64,000 nt of DNA from Candidatus Cloacimonadales bacterium (GTDB lineage Bacteria > Cloacimonadota > Cloacimonadia > Cloacimonadales > JAIOQZ01). The stretch covers positions 3,008,001 through 3,072,000 of the forward strand of contig OY771587.1 in assembly GCA_963674825.1 (NCBI GenBank), given 5' to 3'. The notes below the pieces were generated by a model that was not told where the DNA came from, did not search any database, and worked only from the letters and a program-made list of their open reading frames with translations. The translations under genes were made by a program, and so were the position numbers. How positions within the stretch are numbered: the first letter of the stretch is position 1; each line of letters begins with the position of its first letter. Below are positions 22,122-60,954 of this stretch, one piece after another.

Positions 22122-22142
22122 AGCTTCTACCTTGTTTTCGGG

Positions 22143-23981
22143 TTAAAAATTTCCAGGTGATTCGACAAAATTGTACGACACCTCATGATACGCGTTGCTA
22201 AAGTTTCCACGCTTCACCGGCGGAAAGTCCGGCGGTGGGCATGTTTGAAATCTATAGTCATAGTGATAATCTTTGTTATACCCGCTAGCACCGACGCTTG
22301 TCGTTCCATTGATGGATTCGCGTCCCCAGGCATGGTTTCCATACACAAAGTTATCCATATCCCAGTATTCACTCGAATCCATCGGGTCGCTACCGCTTCT
22401 ATGCGTGAATCCACGGCGAACCTGGGCGACTGATCCGTACAGATGGATCGTTCCGCGCATTCTGATCGGTTCTTCTTCCGGCCAGAGCGGGTTATAGAAG
22501 GGATAATCCGGAGCATAGTCATCGCCCGTCACGCCACTATAGATGGCGCGATTCACCGGCATGGGCCAGAGCTGATCACCTTGCGGCGGGTACCAGCAAA
22601 CATGAAGGTCAGGATACTCGTAGGTTACACTAAACTCCGTATAGGTTGGCGTGCTGTGATGCGTGTATTGATACTGATATGTGAATACACCGTTGCGTTG
22701 CGATGTTTCATCGCCATCTCCCAGCGCGCAGAGCGCTGCGTAGATGTTGATGTCGTCGCAGTTGTAATGTCGACGATGGCCGCCTTCATATTCATCGCTC
22801 AGTCCGTACTGGATATAAATCGATTTCTCCGACACGATTCCCATATAGTCGATCGTATTCATCGGTGCATCGTCAGAACCATCCGGATTTTCGCCCACTG
22901 GTGTATTCTGATAGATGATATCATCGACAAGGTAGATATCTTTCGAGCTACACCATGTCTGAGCGCCAGAAACGGTGCCCTTGATCCAGAGTTCATGCGG
23001 GACAAACACCGAGCTTCCGGTCGGGACAAGACCGGAAGGCCCTTTCGACCACAACGTATCGTAGAACGTGACCTTGTTAATTCCGATCGAGTCGCCGATT
23101 TCGCCCATCGGGGGATAGCTATCGTAAACGATATAAGGTACTGCTTCGGTTTCATAGACATCTCCGAACAAGACGTCGTACGATAATCCCATCAATCTAA
23201 CATATACGATCCTCTTCGGGCTGTTTGCCTGTTCGAGGAAAGGTCTTAGTCCATTACGTCGGATTTCTTCGGCGCGGTTATTGAAAATAATCTCGCGAGC
23301 ATTCTCTGTGTAACCACTAAGGAACACTTCGTCTTCGTCAGGAGGCCCACCAAAATACCGGATCTGGCCTGCCGTGCTTACATGGTCGTGGAATACAGGC
23401 CAGCCAAAATAGCTTTTCAGCCAGATATCCGTATTACTGTGCACTCTTCCCCATATCTCATCGCTTCCGTAAAAATAGATATAGTCGTTATTAACGGATG
23501 CGTTGGTTTTTGTTAGGTCCGAGAATGATGCGTATGTTTCAGCTGTGTAGGTTCTGATCGCGCTACACTCCACGGGGCATTTCTTGTGCGATTTATTGTA
23601 ATCCGCAAGGGATGCCGGGCATTGGAACGTCTTTGCTGTTGAAATCACCTGATGAAGCGTTCCATGGTAGTCCGATCCGTTGTCCCTGACGCACCGAATT
23701 TCGGTTTTGAGAGCATAGGTCGTTTTCGATGCACCGTTGTCCATCTCGATTTTACGGATGGGCAACGCACCGTTATCATTATTGGTAGACATTTTCAGCA
23801 TACCCTGGAATCCCCGGAGAATCTCGGAGCGAACCATGTGGGTTTGTTGTACTGCATTAAGCTGGTAGTTTGTGAATACACAATCACGGTTTGCTATCGA
23901 CGTGAAAACAATACCTGAAACCGCAGCCATCACGACGATGACCATGGATATCAAAACGTTTCCATTATCCTTTTTCAGCAT
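22143..23981 (-). CDS. Large PilX/GspK-like minor pilin, paralog 2
   Basis: KKDNG|NVLISMVIV; WGRVHSN; GYNKDYHYDYRF..PPPDFP. Confidence 0.75.
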   Translation of the reverse strand: MLKKDNGNVLISMVIVVMAAVSGIVFTSIANRDCVFTNYQLNAVQQTHMVRSEILRGFQGMLKMSTNNDNGALPIRKIEMDNGASKTTYALKTEIRCVRDNGSDYHGTLHQVISTAKTFQCPASLADYNKSHKKCPVECSAIRTYTAETYASFSDLTKTNASVNNDYIYFYGSDEIWGRVHSNTDIWLKSYFGWPVFHDHVSTAGQIRYFGGPPDEDEVFLSGYTENAREIIFNNRAEEIRRNGLRPFLEQANSPKRIVYVRLMGLSYDVLFGDVYETEAVPYIVYDSYPPMGEIGDSIGINKVTFYDTLWSKGPSGLVPTGSSVFVPHELWIKGTVSGAQTWCSSKDIYLVDDIIYQNTPVGENPDGSDDAPMNTIDYMGIVSEKSIYIQYGLSDEYEGGHRRHYNCDDINIYAALCALGDGDETSQRNGVFTYQYQYTHHSTPTYTEFSVTYEYPDLHVCWYPPQGDQLWPMPVNRAIYSGVTGDDYAPDYPFYNPLWPEEEPIRMRGTIHLYGSVAQVRRGFTHRSGSDPMDSSEYWDMDNFVYGNHAWGRESINGTTSVGASGYNKDYHYDYRFQTCPPPDFPPVKRGNFSNAYHEVSYNFVESPGNF

Positions 23982-24028
23982 AACCAGCTCCTTGTTGCTG
24001 TGTGTGAAACTGTCTATTCTTGCTTCTA

Positions 24029-25891
24029 TTAGAATCCTGAGGGCGGCCTCTTGATCTTCATCGCTACGTGCTGGAACTGACCAGCCTTACCGCGAATATT
24101 AACGGCAGGAAAGTCTGGCGGCGGATTTTCCATGAAGCGATAGTCGTAGTGATATGCCTTGTCATAACCTGTAGCACCAGTACCAAGAGCTCCGTTGATG
24201 GTCTCGCGTCCCCATGCATATCGCCCATAAACATAGTTATCCATGTTCCAGTAATCTGCGGTATCGAGCACATCGCTACCGCTACGACGGACGTGACCGC
24301 GACGCACCTGTGACAAGCCACCGAATAGATGGATCGTACCTCTGAGGCGGATCGGTTGAGTTTCCGGCCATAATGGGTTATACCATGGATAGTCGGGCGG
24401 TCTCTGGTCTCCGGTAAAGGCCGCGTAAAGGCCACGATTCACGGGAGTAGGCCAGAAGGGTGAGACAGTGGGCGGATACCAGCACAAGTGAAGGTCCGGG
24501 TAAGTGAATACCTCATTGCCAGCCAGTACGTTTGGCGTGCTGAAATGTGTGTACTGATATTCGAAGGTAAACTGACCGTCTTCGTGTGGCTCACCTTCTC
24601 CATCGCCCAGCGCGCAAAGAGCGCCGTAAATGTATATGTCTTCGCAATTGTAGTGATGACGCAGTGAGTCGGCCATCATATCGCGAATACCGTATTGAAT
24701 AAAAATTCGTTTCTCGGAAACAATACCGAGATAATCGACCGTATTGAGCGGGTCGCCGTTATCGCCATCGGGCGCTTCACCGGGGTCGGTATTGGCATAA
24801 ATGATGTCATCGACAAGGTAGATGTCCTTAGCGCAGCCCCAAGTCTGTGCGCCGTAAACAGAACCTTTCAGCCAAAGAGTATCATAGCAGAAAACCGATG
24901 TTCCTGACGGGATATTGCCCGAGTTTCCATAGACCCAGGTAGTATCGACAAAGGTGATGACATTGTAGCCAAGGGAGTCGCCGACAGCGCCGAAAGGCGG
25001 GTAGTTATTGTAAACATAAAGTGTTTCTGGCTGTGGCGGGTAAGATTTTTCATGAATATCGCCAAACATGACGTTATAAATCGTTCCATCGATTTCGACA
25101 TAGACGATTTCGTGTGTATCCGATTCTGCATCGCCGAAGGGTTTCATCGCGTTCTGGCGAAGGAGGTCGGCTGTTGGGTTGAACTCGATCCAGCCTGCTT
25201 CTTCAGTGTAACCGTCAAGGTACACTTCGTCTTCATCAGGGGTACCCCCAAAGTACTGCATATGTCCAGCCGTACTCACATGGTCGTGGAATACCGGCCA
25301 ACCCGAGAGGTTCTTGAGCCAGATATCGGTGTTACTGTGTACGCGCCCCCAAAGTTCGTCGTTACCGTAGAAATAGACCGGGTCCTCGTTCACCGATTCG
25401 TCGGTGTTGGTCAGATACATGTAGCCAGCGAAGGTTTCCTGCTGGAGAACGCGTTCACCGTATTTCTCGATGGGGGATTTATTTTCCGTTCCGTAGTAAC
25501 TGGTATAGGACGGAGTAGAGCGGAAACCTTTTATTTTGGATCTGATGATGCGTTTGTTTGCTAAATTGAGTCCGGAAGAGGTTGTGTATCTGCCTAATTG
25601 TGTTTTCATAGCATAGGTTGTCGTGGCAAAGCCGTGATTAACCTGCACTTTTTTAATAGGCAAAATGTATTGATCCGCGGATCCGGTGTACTCCTGGTTT
25701 GTGCGTATTCCTCTGGAAACTTCGGAACGAAGCCAGTGCAATTCTTGTGTTGAATCCAGCGACATTAATGTCGAGGTCGCATCACGAGAAGCGACAAGTG
25801 ACAACGTCAGGCCGGATATTACAGCAAGGATCGCGATAAGGATCGAGATCGCAAGGTCTCCTCGCTGATTTCTGAGTAATTTCATCCACAT
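24029..25891 (-). CDS. Large PilX/GspK-like minor pilin, paralog 1
   Basis: RNQRG|DLAISILIA; WGRVHSN; GYDKAYHYDYRF..PPPDFP. Confidence 0.75.
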   Translation of the reverse strand: MWMKLLRNQRGDLAISILIAILAVISGLTLSLVASRDATSTLMSLDSTQELHWLRSEVSRGIRTNQEYTGSADQYILPIKKVQVNHGFATTTYAMKTQLGRYTTSSGLNLANKRIIRSKIKGFRSTPSYTSYYGTENKSPIEKYGERVLQQETFAGYMYLTNTDESVNEDPVYFYGNDELWGRVHSNTDIWLKNLSGWPVFHDHVSTAGHMQYFGGTPDEDEVYLDGYTEEAGWIEFNPTADLLRQNAMKPFGDAESDTHEIVYVEIDGTIYNVMFGDIHEKSYPPQPETLYVYNNYPPFGAVGDSLGYNVITFVDTTWVYGNSGNIPSGTSVFCYDTLWLKGSVYGAQTWGCAKDIYLVDDIIYANTDPGEAPDGDNGDPLNTVDYLGIVSEKRIFIQYGIRDMMADSLRHHYNCEDIYIYGALCALGDGEGEPHEDGQFTFEYQYTHFSTPNVLAGNEVFTYPDLHLCWYPPTVSPFWPTPVNRGLYAAFTGDQRPPDYPWYNPLWPETQPIRLRGTIHLFGGLSQVRRGHVRRSGSDVLDTADYWNMDNYVYGRYAWGRETINGALGTGATGYDKAYHYDYRFMENPPPDFPAVNIRGKAGQFQHVAMKIKRPPSGF

Positions 25892-28063: not shown

Positions 28064-28486
28064 TTATTCTTCCTCGTCATCCGAGTACTGGTCAACACCC
28101 CAGCCATAGAAGTAAGCTTCTTCTACGTCGTAGGAGACCTGATGGCCTTCGCCTGCCGGATGGTCAGCGGTAGAGGTGGCAACATACTTTTTCGGCGGGT
28201 TGCCAACAACTTCGAATTCCCAGTTCATTGTGGTAGATTCACCAAGTTTACAGTCTTTCAGCGCTTCTTCAACGGTGTAATCGTCGGTATTTCCAAATTT
28301 CTGCTTTTGGATGTTATAGGCATTACGGATTGCGCGAATTGCTGATTGAGGCTCAGTTGCACGAGCTTGTTCCACATAACGCATATAAATAGGTACCGCG
28401 ATGGCCGCAAGGATCGCCACGATAATAACGACAACAAGGATCTCAATAAGAGTAAATCCTTTTTGGGTTTTCAGGAACTTTGACAT
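28064..28486 (-). CDS. pilA: Major type IVa pilin
   Basis: QKG|FTLIEILVVVIIVAILAAIAVP; strong AAGGAGG RBS; first gene of the cluster. Confidence 0.88.
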   Translation of the reverse strand: MSKFLKTQKGFTLIEILVVVIIVAILAAIAVPIYMRYVEQARATEPQSAIRAIRNAYNIQKQKFGNTDDYTVEEALKDCKLGESTTMNWEFEVVGNPPKKYVATSTADHPAGEGHQVSYDVEEAYFYGWGVDQYSDDEEE

Positions 28487-42725: not shown

Positions 42726-43606
42726 GTCGCTCCTTGCCGTATGTTCCCGCTTTTCAAGCGTTGTCCGAGTTCATTCATCGCTTCCAGCTTCGAGCCAGTG
42801 TCCGGCGCGATTGCCACACCGGTTCTGCGCACATTCGAGGTGAACATCCGGCTCACCACGATGCGCTCGTCCAGCTCGGGAAGCAGTCTTGTCAAAATGG
42901 TGAGGTAGTCGCTGGTTGTCAACGGGATAAAGCGATCGTGTTGCATGATTTTTTCAAGCTCCGTATCCCGATAGATCACCAACTGATGGAATTTCACTTC
43001 GTCGATCAATCCACTGCCGGATATCCAGCGCACGGTTTCCAGCATGTCGTCGATGGTTTCGCCCGGTATGCCGATGATGAGATGCACGCCCGTTCGGATT
43101 CCATACCGCTTCAGCAATTCCAATGCTTGCTCGGTCTGCGCGTGTGTATGGCCGCGTCGCAGGAAATCGAGGCTTCTGTCGTGGATGGTCTGCATACCGA
43201 TCTCGACCGTCACCGGCTTTTCCAGTCCTTTCAGTAGGGTGCAGACTTCTTCGCTGACGCAGTCCGGTCTGGTGGAGATTGCCAGCTCGACAACATTCTG
43301 TTGTTGTAACGCGGTTTGGAAGATTCGTTTCAGTTGCGTCAGATCGCCGTAGGTCCCGGTTTCGGCATTGAAATAAGGGATCCATGCAGGATGTTTAAAC
43401 ATTTTGCCCATCCTGTCTGTCAGCGTGTGGAACTGGGTGATGACATCCTGATTGGAGACGGGGTCGGTGAAGGTATCCGGTCTGCAAAATATGCATTTAC
43501 CGTGCGGACAGGGAATGCCGGTAGAGAGCGGTACGCGCTGCACGCGGCGCTCGTATTTACGCTGCATGAAGGATGCGTAGGTGTTGATCAGCTCGCTAAG
43601 ATTCAT
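42689..43606 (-). CDS. TIGR01212 (YhcC-like) radical SAM protein
   Basis: CPHGKCIFC, ISTRPDCV, VEIGMQT, RRGHT, HLIIGIPGE, VKFHQL. Confidence 0.88.
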   Translation of the reverse strand: MNLSELINTYASFMQRKYERRVQRVPLSTGIPCPHGKCIFCRPDTFTDPVSNQDVITQFHTLTDRMGKMFKHPAWIPYFNAETGTYGDLTQLKRIFQTALQQQNVVELAISTRPDCVSEEVCTLLKGLEKPVTVEIGMQTIHDRSLDFLRRGHTHAQTEQALELLKRYGIRTGVHLIIGIPGETIDDMLETVRWISGSGLIDEVKFHQLVIYRDTELEKIMQHDRFIPLTTSDYLTILTRLLPELDERIVVSRMFTSNVRRTGVAIAPDTGSKLEAMNELGQRLKSGNIRQGATWNANSNGRSTR

Positions 43607-46600
43607 CGGTCAAAAGGCGCATCTGTCCTTCTGCGATCTCGATGAACTGCTTTGCGCCGATCTGTGTGAAGAGATCAATGGCTTTTTGCAGCTTCTCGAT
43701 CGCGTCGTTTTTTTCATCTTGCTCGATGTGGATCATGGCCCAGTTGAACCACGCACGTCCCTCACCGTCTTTATCGCCAATCTCTTGCAGCATGGTCTGC
43801 TGCTTACGATAATATTCGATGGCCAGCGGGAAATCCTTTTTCATCTTGGCGACATTGCCCAGATTGCCGTAGGTATGGGCTACTCCCGCGAGGTCGTTGA
43901 GTTTCTCTTGCAGCTTGAGGTTACTTTCGTAGGTTCTCTGTGCTTTTTCAATATCACCAGCCATAAATGAAATATCACCAATGGCGTCGTAGCAATAGGA
44001 GAGCATAACACGATCGCCGATATCCTGGGCGATCGCGAGCGCTTGGGAGAAATAGCCGGCGGCATCGTCGTTCTGCTCCTGGTAATAATAGGCTTCGCCG
44101 ATGTTGTAGAGAACGATGCACTCCTGCTGTCTGTTACCGGAAAGTCTGGCCAGTTGTAGAGAATTGCGATAGGCCTCAATAGCCCTGGTATTTTCTCCAC
44201 GGTAACGCATCAGGCCTGCAATATCCATCTGCACTTTGCCGTAGCCGTCTTTATCACCCAGTTTCTCGGCTACTTCGAGTGCCTGACGATAGTAGTTCTC
44301 CGCGTTTTCGGTGTCGCCTCTCTTGAAAGCGAGAATACCCATACTGCTGAGTGCAAGCCTAACATAAACCTGATCCTTGAGCTTCTTAGCGATGTGAAAC
44401 CGTTCGTTCAGGTAGGTCTCGGCTTCGTCGTAGCGCGCTTGATCCATGTAGTACTGTTCCAGGATCGAGCAGAGTTGCAGAACAATTCGTTCATCATTGG
44501 ATTTGCGTACCTTATCGAGGTATTCGATCGCCTTTTCCTCGAAGTCACGGCCAGTCTCACGCAATGCATTCAGGTAGAGAATTTCAACCTGATTGAAGCG
44601 TCTCTTGTCGGTGAATTGATCCAGTACAGCTTCTGCAAACTGGATTTGCTCGGTGAAACGGGCGGTTTTATCGTTTAGCCGGGCGGTAAGCAAGCGATGG
44701 TAATCCAGATCGGCACCTTCGAGTATACCTGTATCGAGCTTGATGAGTCGGGTCTCGGCTTCTTTTGTGTCTCCCTGTAGCAGAAGGATATCGATAATAT
44801 GAAGTTCCATCTCGATTCGCTGCAAATCGTTACTGCAATGTTCCTGTGCGATTCGGAAGAAGTACGCGCTTTCAGTGAGAGAATAGAGCGCGAAGTTTTT
44901 ATGTGCTGCTTCAAGCGCATAGCGGAATGTTTTTTGGTGGTTTTCGGCCAGGATGTAGTGATTGGCAATCAATTCCAACCACGGATAATGGTCATTTTCG
45001 TGTTTCCGCTCGTAGTAACCTGCGATGCGATTGTGCAGGTCCCTTTTCTCGCTTCTGAGGATCGTTCTGTAGATTGCCTCGCGCATGAGGTTGTTGCTAA
45101 AGATGTATTCGATCTCGGGATTGATGTTTTTCTCGTTGATGATGGAGATCACGTTGAGCATGTGGAGGATTTCAACCACGCGCCGCGAGAATTCCGCTTT
45201 ACCGATCACTGCCAGTGAATCTACACTAAAGGCACGGCCTACGATCGATGCGATCTTGAGAAGCTGGCGCGACGATTCATCAAGGTGCTCGTATTGCCGA
45301 ATGAAAAGGTTCTCCAGGGTCTGCGGGATGATTCCCCTGCGCAGCATGATTCCAATATGCGCTTCGGTAAGTATGTTCTTTCTACAGTCGAAGTTGGTTT
45401 GGATTAGGCTGCACATTTCGCTGATGAACATTGGGTTACCGTCGGTGATGGTTGCCAGGTTTTCAACAGCGTCCCCGGCGATGTTCGGGATGTCGTCCCG
45501 GATCAGCTGCGCAGCGTGCTCTCGCTGTAGATTTCCGAGCTGGATGTGGATCGGTTTTGAGCTAGAAAGTTCATCTGCGGTGGTTTCCTCACGCGTTGTG
45601 ATCAGAACGCCAATGCCTTCGTAGAGGAGACCGGGCAGTGCGCGAAGGAAGATCGCCAGCGATTTTGTGTCCATCCATTGCATGTTATCCAGTGTAACCA
45701 TCCCGGCATCTTTCCAGAGCTCCCGCAGGATTTCGGCGAAGGTTTGCTCAACGATGCTGATCATATCGAGGTAGCCGAAATCGAGCTTGCCTTGAAGGTA
45801 TTGCCGCATGAGGTTTTCGTCGATGGCAAGATTGTGTTCGTGGCACCAAGTAACGAGCTTGTCGAGGTCATTCGGTAAGTCACCAGCGTCGATCATGCGG
45901 CCCAGGACCTTACGAATGAATTCGAGCGGAGAATTGCGACTGTATTCGTCTAAAACGTAAAGTTCAAAGCGATTTCCGTTGTTGATCTGGTGCTGCAGAA
46001 TGTTGTATGTCAGAAAAGATTTACCAACACCCGCATTTCCCGATATTATAACGAGTCTATTTGCGTTCTCATAGATACTTTGAAGTTCGCAGTCGCATCC
46101 GACCAGCGTCTGATGCTCGTATAGCTGGCGGAAGGCTGTCCAGTTCTCAGGGAGTTCACGTACCGGCGAGTAGATGTCGATTTCGTCGCGGATTCCCTTT
46201 ACCTGCACACGTTTCACGAAGCGGGATTCGAAGTGTGACTGGATTTTGGGCAGTACTTCTTGCGAAAAGGCGATTTCGCCGTATCCCGCCACAGACATAA
46301 GCCGGGCGGAGATATTCACTGCGTTGCCGATGATGCCGTATTCCCAGCGATTCTCGGTTCCGAGCGTGCCGGCGTAGATATTGCTATAGGTGATTCCGAT
46401 GCGGATTCGGATGGTCTCGGTGGGAATTTGCAGGAGTTTCCACGAGCATATGAATGCGCGCTCGGCGTCATCGAAATGGACATTGGGTACGCCAAAGGTG
46501 ATGATGAGAATGTAACCCTTATCGGTGTAGTCGATTTTGTTTATGTTACCGCCCATGGCGTAGACTTTCTGCTGTACGCGGACGTAGAATTCTTGGTAGT

Positions 46601-47351
46601 CCGCACCGTTTATAGCTGGAGTGCCTTCTGCTGGACTGATCTCGATGAAAACGATGGCGGCATTACGTAGTTCAGCGCTGAATTCCATGCCGCTGATTTT
46701 TTCTTTTACTGAGTTGCTGACAAAATTTGCAGCGAAACCACTGTCGATATTCTCGATTTCAAAAGGTTCTGAAGCTTGCGACGGTTCAATGAGTGTTTCA
46801 TATACGAGGATCTCACCGGCTTTTGCGTATTCACCTATCTCATATGCCTGTTGAAGTGCGTCTCCTACGAAATAATAATCGAGGTGGTATTTCGGGTCGC
46901 CCACAATGTGCAGTTCTGTTTTACCCCAGGATATTCCCCCGTGTATCTCGATCTGTACACCGTATTGCTCCTGATAGTAAGTGTTCAGCTCTATAAGCTG
47001 TTCGAACATCGCGCTACGGCAACGGACGATGCGGGAAAGGGACTCTTTCTTTGATCCGGGAAAAACTGAAAGGAGCGAATCACCGCCGTATTTGACGAGA
47101 TAGCCTCCATGGGTGCGAATGCAGGTGTCCATTGCGTTGAAATAGCGATTGAGAACACCAGTAATCGTCTCGACACCGTAATGACCTGATCCGCTTACTT
47201 GCTCAGTGAGATGTGTGAATGATTTGATGTCGGTAAATAGGATCCCCATCTCACTTGAATGCAGAATTGGAAGCGGTATTTGCTCGATACTAACATACTG
47301 TCGAATCAGTTCGTGAATGTTGCCGGGGATGATACCTCGCAAGTCTTTCAT
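43596..47351 (-). CDS. Tandem class III nucleotide cyclase + STAND/AAA NTPase + TPR protein (soluble-adenylyl-cyclase-like architecture)
   Basis: ILFTDIKSFT and KYGGDS (cyclase 1); DKG and GNAVNISARLM (cyclase 2); GNAGVGKS Walker A; LDNMQWMD; DGNPMF; C-terminal TPRs. Confidence 0.88.
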   Translation of the reverse strand: MKDLRGIIPGNIHELIRQYVSIEQIPLPILHSSEMGILFTDIKSFTHLTEQVSGSGHYGVETITGVLNRYFNAMDTCIRTHGGYLVKYGGDSLLSVFPGSKKESLSRIVRCRSAMFEQLIELNTYYQEQYGVQIEIHGGISWGKTELHIVGDPKYHLDYYFVGDALQQAYEIGEYAKAGEILVYETLIEPSQASEPFEIENIDSGFAANFVSNSVKEKISGMEFSAELRNAAIVFIEISPAEGTPAINGADYQEFYVRVQQKVYAMGGNINKIDYTDKGYILIITFGVPNVHFDDAERAFICSWKLLQIPTETIRIRIGITYSNIYAGTLGTENRWEYGIIGNAVNISARLMSVAGYGEIAFSQEVLPKIQSHFESRFVKRVQVKGIRDEIDIYSPVRELPENWTAFRQLYEHQTLVGCDCELQSIYENANRLVIISGNAGVGKSFLTYNILQHQINNGNRFELYVLDEYSRNSPLEFIRKVLGRMIDAGDLPNDLDKLVTWCHEHNLAIDENLMRQYLQGKLDFGYLDMISIVEQTFAEILRELWKDAGMVTLDNMQWMDTKSLAIFLRALPGLLYEGIGVLITTREETTADELSSSKPIHIQLGNLQREHAAQLIRDDIPNIAGDAVENLATITDGNPMFISEMCSLIQTNFDCRKNILTEAHIGIMLRRGIIPQTLENLFIRQYEHLDESSRQLLKIASIVGRAFSVDSLAVIGKAEFSRRVVEILHMLNVISIINEKNINPEIEYIFSNNLMREAIYRTILRSEKRDLHNRIAGYYERKHENDHYPWLELIANHYILAENHQKTFRYALEAAHKNFALYSLTESAYFFRIAQEHCSNDLQRIEMELHIIDILLLQGDTKEAETRLIKLDTGILEGADLDYHRLLTARLNDKTARFTEQIQFAEAVLDQFTDKRRFNQVEILYLNALRETGRDFEEKAIEYLDKVRKSNDERIVLQLCSILEQYYMDQARYDEAETYLNERFHIAKKLKDQVYVRLALSSMGILAFKRGDTENAENYYRQALEVAEKLGDKDGYGKVQMDIAGLMRYRGENTRAIEAYRNSLQLARLSGNRQQECIVLYNIGEAYYYQEQNDDAAGYFSQALAIAQDIGDRVMLSYCYDAIGDISFMAGDIEKAQRTYESNLKLQEKLNDLAGVAHTYGNLGNVAKMKKDFPLAIEYYRKQQTMLQEIGDKDGEGRAWFNWAMIHIEQDEKNDAIEKLQKAIDLFTQIGAKQFIEIAEGQMRLLTDES

Positions 47352-53928: not shown

Positions 53929-55467
53929 CTATCTGTACTGCAACATTTCACGCAGTTGAGCACGATTGTGTGCGCTTTCCAGTGCATTTTCAGGACTGAT
54001 CAGACCCTTGCGAGAAAGTGCGTACAGATCCTGCTCCATCGTTTGCATGCCAACTTTCTGGCCTTGCATGATAAGCGTGTAAAGCTCGTTGATGTTGTTG
54101 TTCTGGATGGCTTGTTTGGTTTGGGCTGTGTTTATGAAAATCTCTTTTGCATGAACCATCGATTGTCGCGTTCCAGGAACAAGCTGTGTCGAGATTATCG
54201 AATTGATCGCCTGAGAAACCGCGACTCTTATCTGATCCTGCTCACCAGCAGGGAAGAGATTGAGTATCTTCTGGATCGCTTCGGTGGTGGATTTGCTGCG
54301 CATCGTGGCATAAACCATCGTGCCGGAATCGACCAGCTTAAAGATCGTTTCGGCGACATCCGGATAGCGAATATCCTCTACAACGACCAGGTTCGGATTG
54401 TAGTCCAGGCAACTTTTCAGGCCATCAACGAGGCTGTTGACATCGCTGTGGATTTCCTGCTGGCGAACCAGACATTTGCGTGATTCGTGATAGTATTCGA
54501 TGGAATCTGAGAGCAGGAAGATGCTCCCGTTTCCGTTCTGATTGTTGTAATCGACCAGTGAATCGATCATCGTACTCTTGCCTGATCCTGCCGGCCCGGT
54601 AAAGATGACCAGTCCGCCGTTGTCATTACGGAGTGTGATTCGGTTGAGAAGTGCCGATGGAAGCGTGAACATGTCGATTGGTGTAACTTCACGCCGAGTA
54701 GGTTTGATGCAGACGACCATTTCATTTAGCTCAAAGTACGCTTTAACGCGATAACGATAGAGCACGTCTTCTGCCTGGAATTCGTGATTGAATTTCAGAT
54801 ATTTCTGCTTCAGCATCAGGTCCAGCTCTTCTTTGCTGAGGATACTAAGAATCATGATATTAATCTCGTCCTGATTGAAAGTTCTTTCGACCTCAAAGGG
54901 AATGAAGCGATTTTTGATCTTCGCCCAGATGCGTCCTTTGGAGCCGTGACCACCCATCTCGACATAGGACGCGCCCTGATTTTCGATAAACAGCAGGAAT
55001 TCTTCGAGCTTGTTGAACACCTTTTCTTGAAGGTCGGGATTGGTGTTCAGCTTATCTTTGAGGCGTTTCAGTTTGTCGTTAGTCGTGGTGCGGAAGAGTT
55101 GACGCCGTTCGATCAGTCCAAGCTCAACAACCTGCAGGAATTCCTTCATATTGATCGGCTTGGTGAGGAACCGGAACGCTCCGTAGTTGAGTGCTTCGCG
55201 GGTGTATTCCATGTCGTCGTAGCCGGTGACGATGATCACGATGGCATCGGGATCGATCATCTTGAGCACTTTCATGAAATCGACACCGTTCATCTCGGGC
55301 ATCATGATGTCAGTGATGTACAGGTCGAAGCTCTTTTCACCTGCAAGGCGGAAGGCTTCCTGACCGTTTTGTGCTTCATGGATCTCGTAGTCTTCGGTTT
55401 CCAGAAAGTTCCGGTAAAGTTCGCGAATTTCAGGTTCGTCGTCAATGATCAGGATTCTTGGTCTCAT
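53929..55467 (-). CDS. Response-regulator receiver domain fused to a degenerate PilT/PilU-like ATPase
   Basis: Receiver: IIDDE, ITDIMMP, VTG, LTKP. PilT-like: RYRV, GPAGSGKST, DSIEYYHES...VRQQEI, GMQTMEQDL. Confidence 0.85.
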   Translation of the reverse strand: MRPRILIIDDEPEIRELYRNFLETEDYEIHEAQNGQEAFRLAGEKSFDLYITDIMMPEMNGVDFMKVLKMIDPDAIVIIVTGYDDMEYTREALNYGAFRFLTKPINMKEFLQVVELGLIERRQLFRTTTNDKLKRLKDKLNTNPDLQEKVFNKLEEFLLFIENQGASYVEMGGHGSKGRIWAKIKNRFIPFEVERTFNQDEINIMILSILSKEELDLMLKQKYLKFNHEFQAEDVLYRYRVKAYFELNEMVVCIKPTRREVTPIDMFTLPSALLNRITLRNDNGGLVIFTGPAGSGKSTMIDSLVDYNNQNGNGSIFLLSDSIEYYHESRKCLVRQQEIHSDVNSLVDGLKSCLDYNPNLVVVEDIRYPDVAETIFKLVDSGTMVYATMRSKSTTEAIQKILNLFPAGEQDQIRVAVSQAINSIISTQLVPGTRQSMVHAKEIFINTAQTKQAIQNNNINELYTLIMQGQKVGMQTMEQDLYALSRKGLISPENALESAHNRAQLREMLQYR

Positions 55468-55482
55468 ATGTCTAAATACTCC

Positions 55483-56811
55483 TTAGTCGGATTCGGTCCA
55501 GCGAGTCACTCTTCGCTCTCCGGTATCTGGAATTCCCGGAGGTGATTTCGTTCTGAATCTGTTATCGTACACGATTCGTTCTTTAAAGCCCTTTGGCTGC
55601 GCGAGGTTACCGTTCCAGGTAACGATGGGCTTGCTCTGGAGTCGGCTTCCAAAGGTAGTCCAGAACCCATAGTATTTTCCACCCCAGTTCTGGATTGTGA
55701 TATCGTTTGGTGTGACGATATTCGCCATGATCATGCATCCGGGCCATTCTCCGCCGAGGTCGTAATGTTTATCGGCAGGAATGAATATCTCATCAGCAAT
55801 GAGCCCCAGCATATCTTCGGAATCTTCCGGGACGCTGGGGATGCCTTCTGCGTTCTGGGTTGCGTCGCTATAGATGATATCTCCATCGATGAACATATCC
55901 TTCGATGTCTCGATGCTCAGGTTGCCCTTGATGGTTCCCTGAATGTGCAGATCTCTTTTAGCAACGATAACATGGCTGGTTATATCTGCAATATCCATCG
56001 TAACGACGTGAGTTCCGGTTTTATTCTGAAGGGTTATTGAACCGTCTGCAAAGAAGTAAACGAAGATATCGCCTACGGATGACGGGAACAGGGTTTCGAT
56101 ATCGAGCGGTGTTCCTGTCACTTTGGAGTAGTCAATAGAGAGTGCTGATGTGTTAAACGGAATTACGCGGTGAGTGAAGTCGTTATTATCGCCTGTAAGG
56201 CCTGTGTAGTCGGCTCCGGGGATATCGTCTTCGTCATAGTAGTGTCCGCTACCGCGAATGTAGAGGCCACCGGATGTTGTCAGGTTTCCGTTGAAGATGG
56301 GTCCGGGATAAAATACGCCCGAATGCCAACGGTCTCTATCGATACGGAATGCATCGTTGCAGTGAACAGGTCCCCAGAAATCTTCGCCGGTTCCATACCA
56401 GCCTCCTGTGAACTTGTTTACGAAGTAGGCATAGTAGGAGTATGGAAGCTCCCAGTCGGCGACTGTCACTGTTACACTTTCACCATCAATGTCGGCGGTG
56501 GATGTTATAACAACTTCTCCCGTTGAAGCATCACGTTCCACAACGACTTTTATATCGCCGCGAAGAGGAGTTGATATCTTGTGATCTTCACTGATGCTTG
56601 CCATGTATTCCGGTGTATCACGGAATGAAGCTGACCGAATCAAGTCGAGCTTCTGATAGGCATAGCTATTCGCCACGTTGAGCGCGACGCGTTTATTATA
56701 CAGCTCGATCGTCTCGCGAAGCGCCGCTTCTTCAGGGCCTTTCGCGCTTATCATCATGTAGGAGATGGACACAAACAGTGCCATCACAACGTATATTGCA
56801 TATCTTCCCAT
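55483..56811 (-). CDS. Large PilX-like pilin (DUF4900/ComZ-like) with a minimal leader
   Basis: MG|RYAIYVVMALF hydrophobic N-terminus; FWGPVHCND; DMLGLIA; YDNRFRTKSPPGIP, matching the locus-1 paralogs. Confidence 0.7.
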   Translation of the reverse strand: MGRYAIYVVMALFVSISYMMISAKGPEEAALRETIELYNKRVALNVANSYAYQKLDLIRSASFRDTPEYMASISEDHKISTPLRGDIKVVVERDASTGEVVITSTADIDGESVTVTVADWELPYSYYAYFVNKFTGGWYGTGEDFWGPVHCNDAFRIDRDRWHSGVFYPGPIFNGNLTTSGGLYIRGSGHYYDEDDIPGADYTGLTGDNNDFTHRVIPFNTSALSIDYSKVTGTPLDIETLFPSSVGDIFVYFFADGSITLQNKTGTHVVTMDIADITSHVIVAKRDLHIQGTIKGNLSIETSKDMFIDGDIIYSDATQNAEGIPSVPEDSEDMLGLIADEIFIPADKHYDLGGEWPGCMIMANIVTPNDITIQNWGGKYYGFWTTFGSRLQSKPIVTWNGNLAQPKGFKERIVYDNRFRTKSPPGIPDTGERRVTRWTESD

Positions 56812-56829
56812 GGTATCCTCCCGGGTTGA

Positions 56830-57411
56830 TTACCAGTCCCAAATGCACTTCAAAAAGATAATACCTTCTCCGATTGCCATAGCCCGATCTCCATCGGTAT
56901 GTCCGGCATCGGCTCCATAAGTGTCTTCGCTTTCCATTGTGAATTTGTATCCAACAAATTGAATATCATTTGTGTTGGTCGTTTCATTGTAATTATTATC
57001 GTAATATGTGAATTTGAAACTTGTTACGCCCATGAAACCATCGTTGATCGTTTTACCGTTCACAGTGAATTCGACGTTTCGGTCGTTAAGAGTCGGTGTG
57101 GGATCTTCAACCCAAGGTTTGTATGCGATGGAAACGGTATCCATAACGCTATCGTCATCGATATCCGCGACGAAAACCAGTTTCTTGGCGTCAGCTATAG
57201 TGATCGCCTTCTCGATATTGGAAACGGATCGTCCTACGTTTTTAATCTGGTTGCGTAGGACTTCCTTGAGCAGCTCGGAATATGACTGCTCGCGGTAGGT
57301 CAACGTTGCCTCGATATTGGACTCATAGGTGCTGATCTGCATCTTGAAGACAAGCGATATCAACATCATCGTAAGGATGAAAGCGCCAATGATTTCAAGT
57401 GCTGTTTGCAT
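56830..57411 (-). CDS. PilW/GspJ-like pilin without a prepilin leader
   Basis: M-QTALEIIGAFIL; FVADIDDDSVMDTV; GVTSFKFTYYD. Confidence 0.68.
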   Translation of the reverse strand: MQTALEIIGAFILTMMLISLVFKMQISTYESNIEATLTYREQSYSELLKEVLRNQIKNVGRSVSNIEKAITIADAKKLVFVADIDDDSVMDTVSIAYKPWVEDPTPTLNDRNVEFTVNGKTINDGFMGVTSFKFTYYDNNYNETTNTNDIQFVGYKFTMESEDTYGADAGHTDGDRAMAIGEGIIFLKCIWDW

Positions 57412-57426
57412 CGCTCACCTCCTCTT

Positions 57427-57822
57427 CTATAGCTCTGTAAAAACGTGCTGAAGCTCGATCGTGAATGTCTGGCTTTGATCCTGGACAAGGACTTTCAGCA
57501 GCTTATAATTTGTCGTGAGCGTTGTTTTTGCAAAGCCATTCGAGTTGAACGCCGCGAAGTCGATGCTCGAGGTAACTCTGAATGTGTCAGCTCCAAAATC
57601 AACTTTGTCCCACTTCCCATTCTTGTCGAATTCATCTTCCAGATCATCGAAATCCACCGACCATCCGCGTTCGATGATCGACTGAGCAAGTGAGACCGCA
57701 TCGTTCTGAAGCTGGCTGTTGATGGTGGATTCGGCTGTATTCTTTTTGTGCGTGTTCATGGTGACCACAAGGTTCATGAACAGGAAGATCGCGATCAGAA
57801 CATAGAGGTATTGGCTTCCCAT
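57427..57822 (-). CDS. PilV/GspI-like pilin with a minimal leader
   Basis: MG|SQYLYVLIAIFLF; AVSLAQSIIE; FDDL; YKLLKVLV. Confidence 0.65.
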   Translation of the reverse strand: MGSQYLYVLIAIFLFMNLVVTMNTHKKNTAESTINSQLQNDAVSLAQSIIERGWSVDFDDLEDEFDKNGKWDKVDFGADTFRVTSSIDFAAFNSNGFAKTTLTTNYKLLKVLVQDQSQTFTIELQHVFTEL

Positions 57823-57830
57823 AAGTTCTC

Positions 57831-59606
57831 CTAATCGGTTGTTGTCGAGAGGACGTCGTTAAGGTCGGCGACACCCTTGCGGACAAGCTCGATACCGGCC
57901 TGACGCAGTGACAACATTCCCTGTTTCTCGGCGATGCGCCTGATTTTGTTTTCGTCGATATCGGATTTCGAATCCAGAATAGCCTGCTGTATTTCGTGGG
58001 AGAAGAACAGCGTTTCGTGAATACCGGCGCGGCCTTTGAAGCCTGTCCCGCGACAAAGATCACAGCCCACCGGTTCGAAAACTTTGCCTTCGAGGATTTC
58101 TTCGGTAGTGATACCGTATTGCTCATATATTTTTGCGTTTTCTTTCGACACGGGTCGCTTGCAGGCTTTGCAGAGTTTACGCACAAGGCGCTGCGCAACG
58201 ATAATATTAATCGCGTTGGCCATCAAGAATGTCTCAATCTGCATTTTATACATACGAGAGATAGCGCTGGGTGCGTCGTTAGTATGCAGCGTCGCGAAAG
58301 TAAGGTGACCGGTGTTCGCGAGCTTGATACCGATTTCAGCTGTCTTCTTATCGCGAATCTCACCAACCATGACGATATCGGGGTCGTGACGAAGGATCGC
58401 GCGGAGTGCGAGGTCGAAGGTACATTTCGGGCTGATCTTGATCTGACGAGCGCCTTTGACGACATACTCGACCGGTTCCTCGACAGTCAGTGCGTTACGT
58501 TCCGGTGTCATTACGTGATAGAGTGTTGCAAGAAGCGTGGTACTTTTACCGGAACCGGTAGGTCCCGTGATGATCACCATACCTTGTGGCTTCGCGACGG
58601 CTCTTTCAAAGTCGCGTCTCGATTGTGACAGGAAGCCAAGATCGTCGATGTTGTCGATGACGTTACGGTCATCCAAAATACGAATAACGATACTCTCGAA
58701 ATGCCGTTCCATTTCGCGGGAAACAATCGGCAGGATCGAGACACGGAAACGGATTGTATAACCGTCGATGTCACGCTGGATGAATCCGTCTTGAGCCTCG
58801 TCGATCTTGAAACGATCCACACCCAGCGACCGGTCTTTCACCACAGCCTGGAACGCCTGCGGGTTGATGTTTTCCTTCCGTTTCCAGAGGGTTAGCTTAC
58901 CGTCGATACGGAACATAATGTCGGTAGTTTTCACATCAAATGGTATGATGTGAATATCACTAACCTTGTTCTTGACAGCTTCCACCAGAGCCGCTTCGAA
59001 GAGATAGACAAGTGCGCCTTTGTTGATTTCCTGATTGATCAGATCATCGTCGTCCGTCTTCTTGGAATCCTCGATGGCATTGATATCGATGGTTCCTTCT
59101 TCGGTACCGAGCAGGTCGAGGAATTCGTTTTCATCTTTCTGCACGATGTCGATAAGGCGCTTGATTTCGTCGAAAGGTGTATAGACGATCTCGTAGCGTT
59201 TGACTTTGGAGTAGGAGGCGATTTCTTTTGCGAAGCTATCGGTAGGATTAGAAGCCAGGATAATCAGAGTCTCGATGCGCTTCTTCTGAATCTTATAGGG
59301 GATAATCTTTTTCTGCAGGGCTTCGTTTTTTACGTCCTTCGGAAGCGAATCAAGCAGCTGCGTGATTTCTTCGATGTCGTCTTCGCTCAATTTCTCCGGC
59401 GAGATATTCATCTTGGAAATAGCGTAAAGCTTGGCTACCTCGGTGTACAGACGGTCCCTGTCAACCTGATATTGGTCGATGAGAATCTCTTCAAGCGTCT
59501 GGGTGTTGTCTGGTTTGTCCAGCTTGACCCTGGCCGCGTTGAGAATCTCTTCGGTAATGATATTCTTGAGAACGAGCAATTTTCCTAAAAACTGATTTTC
59601 TTTCAT
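57831..59606 (-). CDS. pilB: Second PilB/GspE-family extension ATPase (locus 2)
   Basis: SDIHIIP, FRIDG, AQDG, GPTGSGKST, VEEPVEY, LRHDPDIVMVGEIRD, TGHLTFATLHTNDA, CKAC...CDLC. Confidence 0.92.
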   Translation of the reverse strand: MKENQFLGKLLVLKNIITEEILNAARVKLDKPDNTQTLEEILIDQYQVDRDRLYTEVAKLYAISKMNISPEKLSEDDIEEITQLLDSLPKDVKNEALQKKIIPYKIQKKRIETLIILASNPTDSFAKEIASYSKVKRYEIVYTPFDEIKRLIDIVQKDENEFLDLLGTEEGTIDINAIEDSKKTDDDDLINQEINKGALVYLFEAALVEAVKNKVSDIHIIPFDVKTTDIMFRIDGKLTLWKRKENINPQAFQAVVKDRSLGVDRFKIDEAQDGFIQRDIDGYTIRFRVSILPIVSREMERHFESIVIRILDDRNVIDNIDDLGFLSQSRRDFERAVAKPQGMVIITGPTGSGKSTTLLATLYHVMTPERNALTVEEPVEYVVKGARQIKISPKCTFDLALRAILRHDPDIVMVGEIRDKKTAEIGIKLANTGHLTFATLHTNDAPSAISRMYKMQIETFLMANAINIIVAQRLVRKLCKACKRPVSKENAKIYEQYGITTEEILEGKVFEPVGCDLCRGTGFKGRAGIHETLFFSHEIQQAILDSKSDIDENKIRRIAEKQGMLSLRQAGIELVRKGVADLNDVLSTTTD

Positions 59607-59607
59607 C

Positions 59608-60954
59608 TTATGCACCTGGCGTGGGTGGACGCATGAATGCGCTTTCCGAGGAGACAACAATCAGAGCCGTCATCACCACGAGGATGAACAATGCCGTTAA
59701 GACATCTATCGTTTGGAGAATCGATTGGAATTTATACTTTGTTTCTTTCTCATAATAAGCAGCGATCTGGAAGGCCGCGTTCTTCACAGAACCCGTTGCG
59801 GAACCTGCGTTCAAACGTGTGATCGCGGTATCCGTAAATACTTCCGATGCCTCAATCGCATCAATCAGGCCGGCACCTTCCTTCAGCATGCGAGGGATTG
59901 TAATTTCTTTGATCTGGCGCTCCATATGTGCGTTGCCACAGGCTTCTGCAGCAATCTGGAGGACTTCGATGTTGTTTCCCGAACCGCTATAAACGATTGA
60001 GAATACGCGGAAGAAAATCTCGATATTCATTTTGTGGATCAGGCCGCCAATGACTGGAATCTTGATGATATTCTTGTCGCGCCACAGCCTTCCCTTAGGT
60101 GTTGTGAACCACCACAGTACAAATGCGATGGGTATGATAAAAGCAAGTGCCAGCCACCACCAGTTATCCTGGAGGAAATAGCTGAGCTGCATGGTCGCAG
60201 CCGTCATGGGAGGGAGGTCCATCTTGAACCGGATGAACATCTCCGTGATTTCCGGGAAGAGTTTGCCGACATAGTAACCGATCGCGCCCAGGATCGCAAG
60301 GAATGTAACAATGGGCATCACCAGAGCCTGACGCAGGTTCTTCTGAAAGTCCGCCTGGCGAGTCAGGTATTCGGCTGTACTCTTGTAGATTTCCGCCATG
60401 TTACCGGACTTCGATGCCAAACCGAGCATGTAGGACGTGAACTTGCCGAACACATCCGAATACTTCTGGAAGACACTCATACCGTCCTGGCCCTGACGCA
60501 AATCGCGCGAGATACCTTTAACTGCGGTACGCAGCGTTTTATTCTGCACGTCGGTAGCGTGGATCTTGAGGATTTCGTCGAACTTCATGTTCTCATTGAG
60601 CATGTCAGCCGTGATGGAGATAAACATCACGATATCGCCAAACGGTGGCTTGAGCCGCAGGTTCATAAGGTTCGGTTCGACAGCGATATTTTTGTATCCG
60701 AGGCTGGCAAGCGCGTTCTGAAGCTCATCCTTCGTAAACGCGTCCTGCTCACCCTTTACTTTCTTGCCTTGCGATGTGACAGCCTTGTAGAGGAAGGATT
60801 TTTTCTGCTCGACTTTTTGCACGCCAAAATTATGCTCAAGCGCAAGCTGATTGATCTTCTTGCGTGCCATAGCCAGGCTCGCTTCGTAGATCGTACCACG
60901 CACGATTTTCTTGGTGTCTCGCTTTACGCCTTGATAGCGGAATTCCTTCAGCAT
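59608..60954 (-). CDS. pilC: Second PilC/GspF-family platform protein (locus 2)
   Basis: Two GspF-like helical domains with TM helices (SKSGNM, DLPPMT, KIPVIGGL, GSATGSV). Confidence 0.85.
   Translation of the reverse strand: MLKEFRYQGVKRDTKKIVRGTIYEASLAMARKKINQLALEHNFGVQKVEQKKSFLYKAVTSQGKKVKGEQDAFTKDELQNALASLGYKNIAVEPNLMNLRLKPPFGDIVMFISITADMLNENMKFDEILKIHATDVQNKTLRTAVKGISRDLRQGQDGMSVFQKYSDVFGKFTSYMLGLASKSGNMAEIYKSTAEYLTRQADFQKNLRQALVMPIVTFLAILGAIGYYVGKLFPEITEMFIRFKMDLPPMTAATMQLSYFLQDNWWWLALAFIIPIAFVLWWFTTPKGRLWRDKNIIKIPVIGGLIHKMNIEIFFRVFSIVYSGSGNNIEVLQIAAEACGNAHMERQIKEITIPRMLKEGAGLIDAIEASEVFTDTAITRLNAGSATGSVKNAAFQIAAYYEKETKYKFQSILQTIDVLTALFILVVMTALIVVSSESAFMRPPTPGA

Follow-up and report, generated by a model that had tools for sequence, protein, structure and literature searches.

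Introduction

Two reviews define type 4 pilins by a cleavable class III signal peptide, a hydrophilic peptide ending in Gly or Ala before a hydrophobic stretch, and count the prepilin peptidase as a core component that all type 4 filaments have (PMC10191384, PMC4471445). Prepilins insert by their hydrophobic helix by way of SRP, the signal recognition particle, and Sec, and cleavage leaves a membrane protein without a cytoplasmic domain (PMC4471445). Glu5 normally pairs with the N-terminal amine of a neighbour (PMC10191384). The shortest leader reported as cleaved in the literature examined has three residues (PMC10117864), and another paper mentions peptidase-less loci only in genomes that have a further system to provide the enzyme (PMC6668835). 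Here we analyze a stretch of 64,000 nucleotides (the window; contig OY771587.1, positions 3,008,001 to 3,072,000, assembly GCA_963674825.1) from a Candidatus Cloacimonadales bacterium, in which three adjacent genes, orfA, orfB and orfC, quite probably encode the minor pilins, respectively PilV-, PilW- and PilX/ComZ-like, that sit at the tip of a second pilus or prime it. That pilus is, on this reading, retractile and type IVa-like, and none of its subunits carries a leader to be cleaved or depends on a prepilin peptidase. This reading rests on the gene anatomy, the predicted folds of two of the three proteins, the conservation of the operon and the distribution of the peptidase PilD. The first-pass annotation, made from the letters of the DNA, had noticed the unusual starts of the trio; it missed the whole second pilus system with its leaderless major pilins, as well as the genome's PilD alongside a separate canonical system.

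A trio of genes without leaders

The genes at the locus, all on the minus strand, run in the order pilC, pilB, orfA, orfB, orfC and a receiver-PilT fusion:

59608..60954, minus strand: PilC-type platform protein of the leaderless system (T2SSF, E 2.9e-26)
57831..59660, minus strand: PilB-type extension ATPase of the leaderless system (T2SSE, E 2.7e-96; Walker A, Walker B and His box intact)
57828..57832, minus strand: ribosome-binding site of orfA, AGGAG, read from the sequence
57427..57822, minus strand: orfA, 131 amino acids (aa), predicted leaderless PilV/GspI-like minor pilin, start MGSQYL (AlphaFold2, VIA-align)
57418..57422, minus strand: ribosome-binding site of orfB, GGAGG, read from the sequence
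56830..57411, minus strand: orfB, 193 aa, putative leaderless PilW/GspJ-like minor pilin, start MQTALE (weak sequence matches)
56817..56821, minus strand: ribosome-binding site of orfC, GGAGG, read from the sequence
55483..56811, minus strand: orfC, 442 aa, predicted leaderless PilX/GspK/ComZ-like tip pilin with beta-solenoid, start MGRYAI (AlphaFold2, Foldseek, VIA-align)
53929..55467, minus strand: degenerate PilT-family ATPase with a fused receiver domain, immediately downstream of orfC (Response_reg and T2SSE)

The three N-termini are as first read, with in-frame stops 13 codons upstream of orfA (57822), 2 upstream of orfB (57411) and 7 upstream of orfC (56811), and AGGAG or GGAGG precedes each ATG by 5, 6 and 5 nt, within the 5-7 nt originally given. 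The claim that a longer leader could not have been missed also stands, since no ATG, GTG or TTG lies between upstream stop and ATG in any of the three. An overlooked leader was likewise rejected for the homologues, in which the interval lacks a start codon in 37/45 copies of orfA, 40/49 of orfB and 53/57 of orfC. The trio begins with 0-2 uncharged residues, no upstream start and, as had been anticipated for searches based on the N-methylation motif, no match to PF07963. None of the pilin families in the Pfam and NCBIfam scans was matched by the trio or by the major pilin described below, and DUF4900 matches some orfC relatives. For the trio, a class I or lipoprotein signal peptide was rejected too, with AxA in 1/45 orfA, 4/49 orfB and 3/57 orfC homologues and no lipobox. 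A promoter scan stayed at chance level (16 found, 14.2 expected). The true start of the PilB-type ATPase is probably an ATG 18 codons inside its open reading frame (ORF).

The comparison of N-termini suggested by the first-pass annotation indicates, at the level of sequence, that leaderless starts are conserved beyond chance. The 45 orfA and 49 orfB copies were taken by synteny, upstream of 57 orfC copies, and a Lys or Arg before the first Gly occurs in none of these 45, 49 and 57 proteins. Among the 23 orfC relatives of an unfiltered HMMER search (E<=1e-10), 19 start MG[RK], the other four being MAR, MLGK, one start within the helix and one protein with 10 extra residues before MGK. A word-indexed protein search returned three orfC proteins only, the query among them. 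A G[RK]-type anchor begins at position 2 in 33/57 and at position 3 in 20/57 orfC copies, and a G-Q-type anchor stands at position 4-5 in 35/45 orfA copies. In orfB an acidic residue falls within the first 10 residues in 46/49 copies (position 6 in 13/49, position 8 in 23/49, 10 unassigned); the corresponding counts elsewhere are 2/45 for orfA, 0/57 for orfC and 3/120 for the major pilin. Gly2 is present in 21/45 orfA, 28/49 orfB and 35/57 orfC copies, and within a single genus orfB starts MG at locus L101 and MQ in the window and at L102. Residue 2 is of small type in 32/45, 40/49 and 50/57 copies, respectively, the type that methionine aminopeptidase (MAP) accepts. The alignments behind these analyses were selected: A1 holds the query and 42 of 120 major-pilin relatives; A2 holds 81 of 152 orfC-related proteins, picked by eye for full length and a leaderless start, so that counts dependent on it lean that way; from A3 and A4, 4/45 and 3/49 rows were dropped (the window's duplicate, doubtful starts).

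Basic leaders do occur in two groups of orfC relatives: weaker matches that include PilX-like proteins with normal leaders (e.g., P0028, P0078, P0146), and three paralogues in the canonical pilus locus of the same window, to whose PilX-like genes orfC is homologous. Because its weaker relatives, as in the canonical locus, are PilX-like proteins with basic leaders, orfC appears from these sequences to be a PilX relative that lost its leader.

Predicted folds of the three proteins

The proposal that these are pilin-like proteins, to be checked by structure prediction and Foldseek, held for orfA and orfC, while for orfB weak sequence matches point the same way. The AlphaFold2 model of orfA (predicted local distance difference test, pLDDT, 87.6; 42-row alignment) has a helix at residues 2-55 followed by a beta sheet. 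Its top VIA-align match is GspI (3ci0_I; Z 9.7, root-mean-square deviation, rmsd, 2.4, 81 aligned), followed by EpsI, XcpV and TTHA1218 at Z 9.2 each and a next row at Z 7.2. Foldseek gave orfA nothing at E<=0.001, its best match being TTHA1218 at E 0.16, and a search of PDB sequences with the orfA profile brought up no pilin. The orfC model (pLDDT 90.3; 81-row alignment) consists of an N-terminal helix at residues 2-59, a pilin sheet and a beta-solenoid. Thermus ComZ (6qvi, E 5.9e-9) supplies its only Foldseek matches at E<=0.001 and also leads the VIA-align results (Z 14.2, rmsd 9.7, 303 aligned), ahead of four ice-binding solenoids (Z 12.5-13.5), PilA of S. sanguinis (10.7) and GspK (10.2). 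Both models carry an antiparallel beta sheet on alpha1C, the globular head of pilins, and open their long helix with about 21 hydrophobic residues, a stretch recognizable in the orfB sequence as well. Rough structural alignments pair residue 2 of orfC with residue 1 of PilA5, and residue 4 of orfA with residue 1 of PilA4.

For orfB, the best PDB match of its profile is the pilin TTHA1219 (E 0.12, 59 aligned residues), and its TALE motif pairs with TLIE in the canonical PilW of the window at an HHalign probability of 5.6%. Comparisons of profiles with the single sequences of canonical PilV, PilW and PilA by HHalign were not significant (0.4, 5.6 and 18.9%). Among its Atlas neighbours, PpdB occurs in 13% and N_methyl in 20%, and orfB occupies the middle position of the trio in related operons. 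Taken together, a set with GspI-like, putatively PilW/GspJ-like and ComZ-like members looks like a minor-pilin set.

A conserved operon and its scattered counterpart

In other lineages the trio belongs to one operon with the order major pilin, pilC, pilB, trio, pilT, pilM-like, pilO-like and secretin. This operon is complete at loci L159, L163, L170, L172, L178, L180, L184, L187 and L192; in others, L176, L177 and L185 among them, no trio is present in cis, and trios that are duplicated or stand by themselves occur commonly. At L160, L162, L164, L166 and L167, orfA-orfB-orfC trios are duplicated in tandem, away from motor genes. The PilB of the leaderless operon at L178 (3813-7298), L179, L182 and L187 measures 1126-1182 aa, about twice the usual length, for which an insertion, an intein for example, may account.

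With the PilC of leaderless operons, the window's PilC shares 41-54% identity, and with the canonical PilC of the same window 24-26%. In 201 genomes from the phylum of Ignavibacteria genome G150, the major pilin was found in 86, the leaderless-type PilC in 85 and both in 84, so that PilC accompanies 84/86 carriers of the pilin vs. 1/115 non-carriers (the genomes are related, and Fisher tests overstate the association). In 121 genomes of the bacterium's own phylum, the pilin occurs in 82 and the leaderless-type PilC in 78. At least 527 stretches matching the system were confirmed in a scan of the genome collection, and the record titles among the matches listed include Cloacimonadota, Ignavibacteria, Kryptonia, Calditrichota, KSB1, Gemmatimonadota and Chlorobiaceae.

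The Cloacimonadota genome (one contig of 3.89 Mb, 99.6% complete) spreads the parts of the system over at least four loci. A scan for Met-Gly proteins led by a ribosome-binding site and with an early hydrophobic stretch gave 11 ORFs, two of which are small unannotated proteins starting MG-QQQILL and MG-FQQILL; a third paralogue stands in tandem with the first. Outside the window, the system would be completed by:

C1:2504785, 2505405 and 3662720 (L012:4786-5807, L013:5721-6134): three candidate leaderless major-pilin paralogues, far from machinery genes
C1:693358-699069: distal cluster of PilT, two membrane-associated genes and secretin
C1:693358-694569: distal PilT (pilT_fam 312 bits, cut-off 319; motifs intact)
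C1:698479: distal secretin PilQ (PF00263, E 1.1e-23)

The distal PilT (median identity 51%) and secretin (24 matches, median 33%) are closer to their leaderless-operon counterparts than the canonical ones are, and two genes in the expected place for PilM-like and PilO-like proteins are kept in relatives. PilB, PilC, PilT and the secretin PilQ of type IVa machinery are thus all represented. In the best 120 of 160 relatives of the major pilin, Gly2 is found in 119/120 and Gln5 in 116/120, and none of the 120 has a Lys or Arg within the first 12 residues. The main ground for identifying this candidate is that it heads the operon, and its register against PilA is ambiguous. Genome G012 has 10 major-pilin matches, which suggests pilin variation. 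Directly downstream of the tandem pilins (L012:6263-9145) lie genes that by eye resemble phage scaffold and capsid genes. Near the third pilin (L013:7209-9382), a 506-aa ORF with secretin-like N-terminal features, absent from the secretin search results, neighbours a PilP-like ORF, both judged by eye.

The receiver-PilT fusion is kept at L096, L099, L101 and L102. Its Walker B motif has changed from GE to ED and its His box from H to M, and it is 31% identical to the distal PilT; it may regulate or brake retraction under the control of a signal.

These data also bear on an alternative in which the trio would belong to a short endopilus within the periplasm that secretes or takes up proteins, similar to a type II secretion system (T2SS), rather than to a surface pilus. 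The nearest folds of orfA are indeed the T2SS pseudopilins GspI, EpsI and XcpV, and the so-called Bacteroidetes T2SS branches with type IVa pili (PMC6668835). The absence of PilT expected of a T2SS is contradicted by an intact PilT inside the conserved operon, the tip resembles Thermus ComZ, and the best NCBIfam model of the window's PilB is PilB, which scores under its own cut-off and still above GspE. An endopilus, which we consider unlikely, would be compatible with leaderless, PilD-free assembly.

Distribution of PilD

The window contains a separate canonical pilus, whose cluster also holds both PF07963 pilin matches of the genome:

10250..28486, minus strand: canonical type IVa pilus cluster, pilins with basic leaders and G|FTLIE

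Three tandem PilX/ComZ-like genes in this cluster (20283-25891, minus strand), 41-50% identical to one another, encode alternative tips, and the canonical PilA lies at 28064-28486. Elsewhere in the window, 43596-47351 on the minus strand encodes a 1251-aa protein that, judged by eye, looks like an adenylate cyclase and also has ATPase and TPR regions. The genome inventory comprises one PilD, at C1:247629-248405, two ATPases of PilB type, three of PilT type, and two secretins. PilD most likely serves the canonical system. It is present in family f6 of the own phylum, where 0/9 genomes have the leaderless pilin, and its distribution, f6 included, indicates that the enzyme tracks the canonical pilus. 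G081 (94% complete, about 190 contigs) is the sole genome of the own phylum with the leaderless pilin and PilC and no PilD match.

Beyond the own phylum, the 86 carriers among the 201 genomes include 12 with PilD (PF01478 over cut-off) and 17 with canonical PF07963 pilins. Both are found in 11, in which about 1.5 kb at most separates the PilD match from a canonical pilin; PilD only in 1, canonical pilins only in 6 and neither in 68. PilD is thus without a match over cut-off in 74/86 carriers. Two further carriers have sub-cut-off PF01478 matches with internal stops, possibly decaying pilD genes (G191:C74:63320, G357:C1:2184060). A second set of 50 carriers, drawn from 80 loci with mostly non-Cloacimonadota titles and with three genomes common to the first set, comprises 19 with PilD and 31 without it (17 have both, 2 have PilD without the pilins, 3 the pilins without PilD, and 28 have neither). 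Searched with the PilD of this genome, five carriers in which the operon's contig is nearly the whole genome (G341, G349, G202, G172, G258) yielded nothing at E<=1, while the same query matched 5/5 PilD-positive controls. The methylase domain PF06750 and the SPP family PF06550 were over cut-off in 0/5 genomes.

The first-pass annotation had offered two options, a bypass of PilD or a two-residue leader, and it is the bypass that these data favour. In the other option, Met-Gly would be a minimal class III leader of two residues (one after loss of Met), which either the shared PilD or a diverged peptidase would cleave. It finds support in the Gly2 of nearly every major pilin and of 35/57 orfC copies, in the PilD of this genome and of most of its phylum, and in archaeal PibD, which cleaves leaders down to three residues (PMC10117864). 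Most carriers, however, have no PF01478 match over cut-off, even though the profile detects archaeal enzymes in controls; Gly2 is kept in about half of the orfA and orfB copies; the +1 residue would be Arg or Lys in orfC; and the acidic residue of orfB would land at +4 or +6 in its two main forms, as opposed to +5 for the short form after loss of Met. We regard such a leader as decidedly unlikely.

Very improbable, finally, are non-filament proteins, either anchored in the membrane or released by signal peptidase I beside a type IV pilus motor, or relics of a decayed system: the missing Pfam and NCBIfam pilin matches, an AxA ending at residue 21 in 97/120 major pilins and the scattering of parts over at least four loci would fit them, yet the orfA and orfC models have pilin folds with N-terminal helices of 54-58 residues, AxA is rare in the trio's homologues and lies inside the hydrophobic helix of the major pilin, the cognate PilC follows the pilin almost without exception, and the ATPase motifs are intact.

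Several points nevertheless weigh against a second, leaderless and peptidase-independent pilus. The pilus is known here from genes and predicted folds, and orfB is assigned as PilW/GspJ-like on weaker evidence than orfA and orfC. The links of the candidate major pilin to known pilins are weak (geopilin at E 0.13; ComP_DUS at E 0.0014 in one member), its near-invariant Gly2 is what would be expected of a -1 Gly, and the PilM-like and PilO-like genes have no Pfam PilM or PilO match. PilD is present in 111/121 genomes of the own phylum, so that independence from it cannot be judged within that phylum; the enzyme is described as promiscuous (PMC4471445), and incidental trimming of leaderless pilins may occur in this cell. 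The 201 genomes were requested at a completeness of at least 95%, with the values not displayed, their relatedness makes Fisher p-values overstate, and an unrelated protease would escape the PilD searches used.

Proposed assembly and significance

If the trio indeed belongs to a leaderless pilus, SRP and Sec would insert the N-terminal hydrophobic helix in the way usual for prepilins. No more than 1-4 polar residues would stay on the cytoplasmic side, with the Arg or Lys after Gly providing a positive-inside charge in orfC. We infer that a pilin with 1-4 polar residues before its helix is already near the state of a cleaved prepilin. Deformylase and MAP would perform the sole trimming, and genes for deformylase and for MAP-sized Peptidase_M24 proteins are found in 5/5 genomes examined. 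MAP removes Met before Gly2 and retains it before Gln2; orfA, orfC and the major pilins would thus lose Met, and orfB, with its Gln2, would keep it. The trio would then prime the filament, to which PilB and PilC of the operon would add the MG-QQQ major pilins, the distal cluster supplying PilT, alignment proteins and secretin. By analogy with ComZ, the solenoid could be a tip receptor; by our estimates adhesion or twitching is its somewhat favoured role, DNA uptake a less likely one and any other function improbable. That the conserved Gln5 replaces Glu5 if the N-terminus stays formylated is a speculation that we consider rather unlikely.

On a broader view, we lean slightly towards a lineage of type IV filaments that is old and widespread and that dropped both leader and prepilin peptidase, with subunits ready for assembly after housekeeping N-terminal trimming or none. 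Gln would replace Glu5 in it, perhaps since a retained formyl-Met leaves no charged amine, and in Cloacimonadota it would coexist with a canonical pilus that depends on PilD, each of the two machines choosing its subunits by their N-terminal chemistry. If this is true, a natural system without leader or peptidase would make the leader a removable safeguard rather than a requirement, and a cutting step held to be universal may be dispensable. The old question of what the leader, Glu5 and N-methylation do, and of what blocks premature assembly, would become testable, and a genome with both systems would be a natural test of how two pilus machines separate their subunits. Motif-based annotation would also be overlooking pili in several phyla, given the major pilin in 82/121 and 86/201 genomes.

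Comparison with known systems

No description of a leaderless pilus system was found in the open literature, which leaves subscription journals mostly uncovered, and the supplements of PMC6668835 may list such loci as type IVa pili or as generic. New here are the leaderless system in Cloacimonadota, its division over several loci and its coexistence with a canonical pilus. As far as its genes tell, the system works like a type IVa pilus whose subunits lack the leader and whose carriers mostly lack a detectable PilD. With the type IVa pili of Pseudomonas, Myxococcus and Thermus it shares PilB, PilC, PilT and secretin, together with a candidate major pilin of small size and a set of three minor pilins whose capping subunit lacks Glu5. 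It differs from them in that no subunit has a basic leader, the major pilin has a Gln-rich start and no Glu5, PilD is not found in most carriers, and its PilC forms a distinct group (41-54% identity within, 22-26% to canonical PilC).

The competence pilins of Thermus are PilD-processed prepilins. Compared with Thermus thermophilus ComZ, PilA2 and TTHA1218/TTHA1219 (6qvi, 6qvf, 5g25, 5g23; PMC6561018), orfC is, like ComZ, predicted to be a pilin domain with an inserted beta-solenoid; TTHA1218 matches orfA, and TTHA1219 is the best PDB sequence match of orfB. Identity to these pilins is about 10-15%, and any DNA binding by orfC would be by analogy with ComZ, which is described as a tip-located, DNA-binding pilin (PMC6561018). 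The minor pseudopilins GspI/GspJ/GspK of the T2SS (3ci0) share the I-J-K gene order with the trio, together with the likeness of orfA to GspI (Z 9.7) and of the orfC pilin domain to GspK (Z 10.2), whereas the leaderless system retains PilT and has subunits without a class III leader.

Two further systems approach it from the side of processing. Archaeal PibD substrates with three-residue leaders likewise have a very short N-terminal extension and often no Glu5; those are still cut by a PF01478 peptidase, whereas the leaderless pilins have 0-2 uncharged residues and usually no such peptidase in the genome searches (PMC10117864). MSHA loci also have no prepilin peptidase gene of their own, but they are reported always to occur in genomes where another system supplies it (PMC6668835), whereas 68/86 leaderless carriers show neither peptidase nor canonical pilins.

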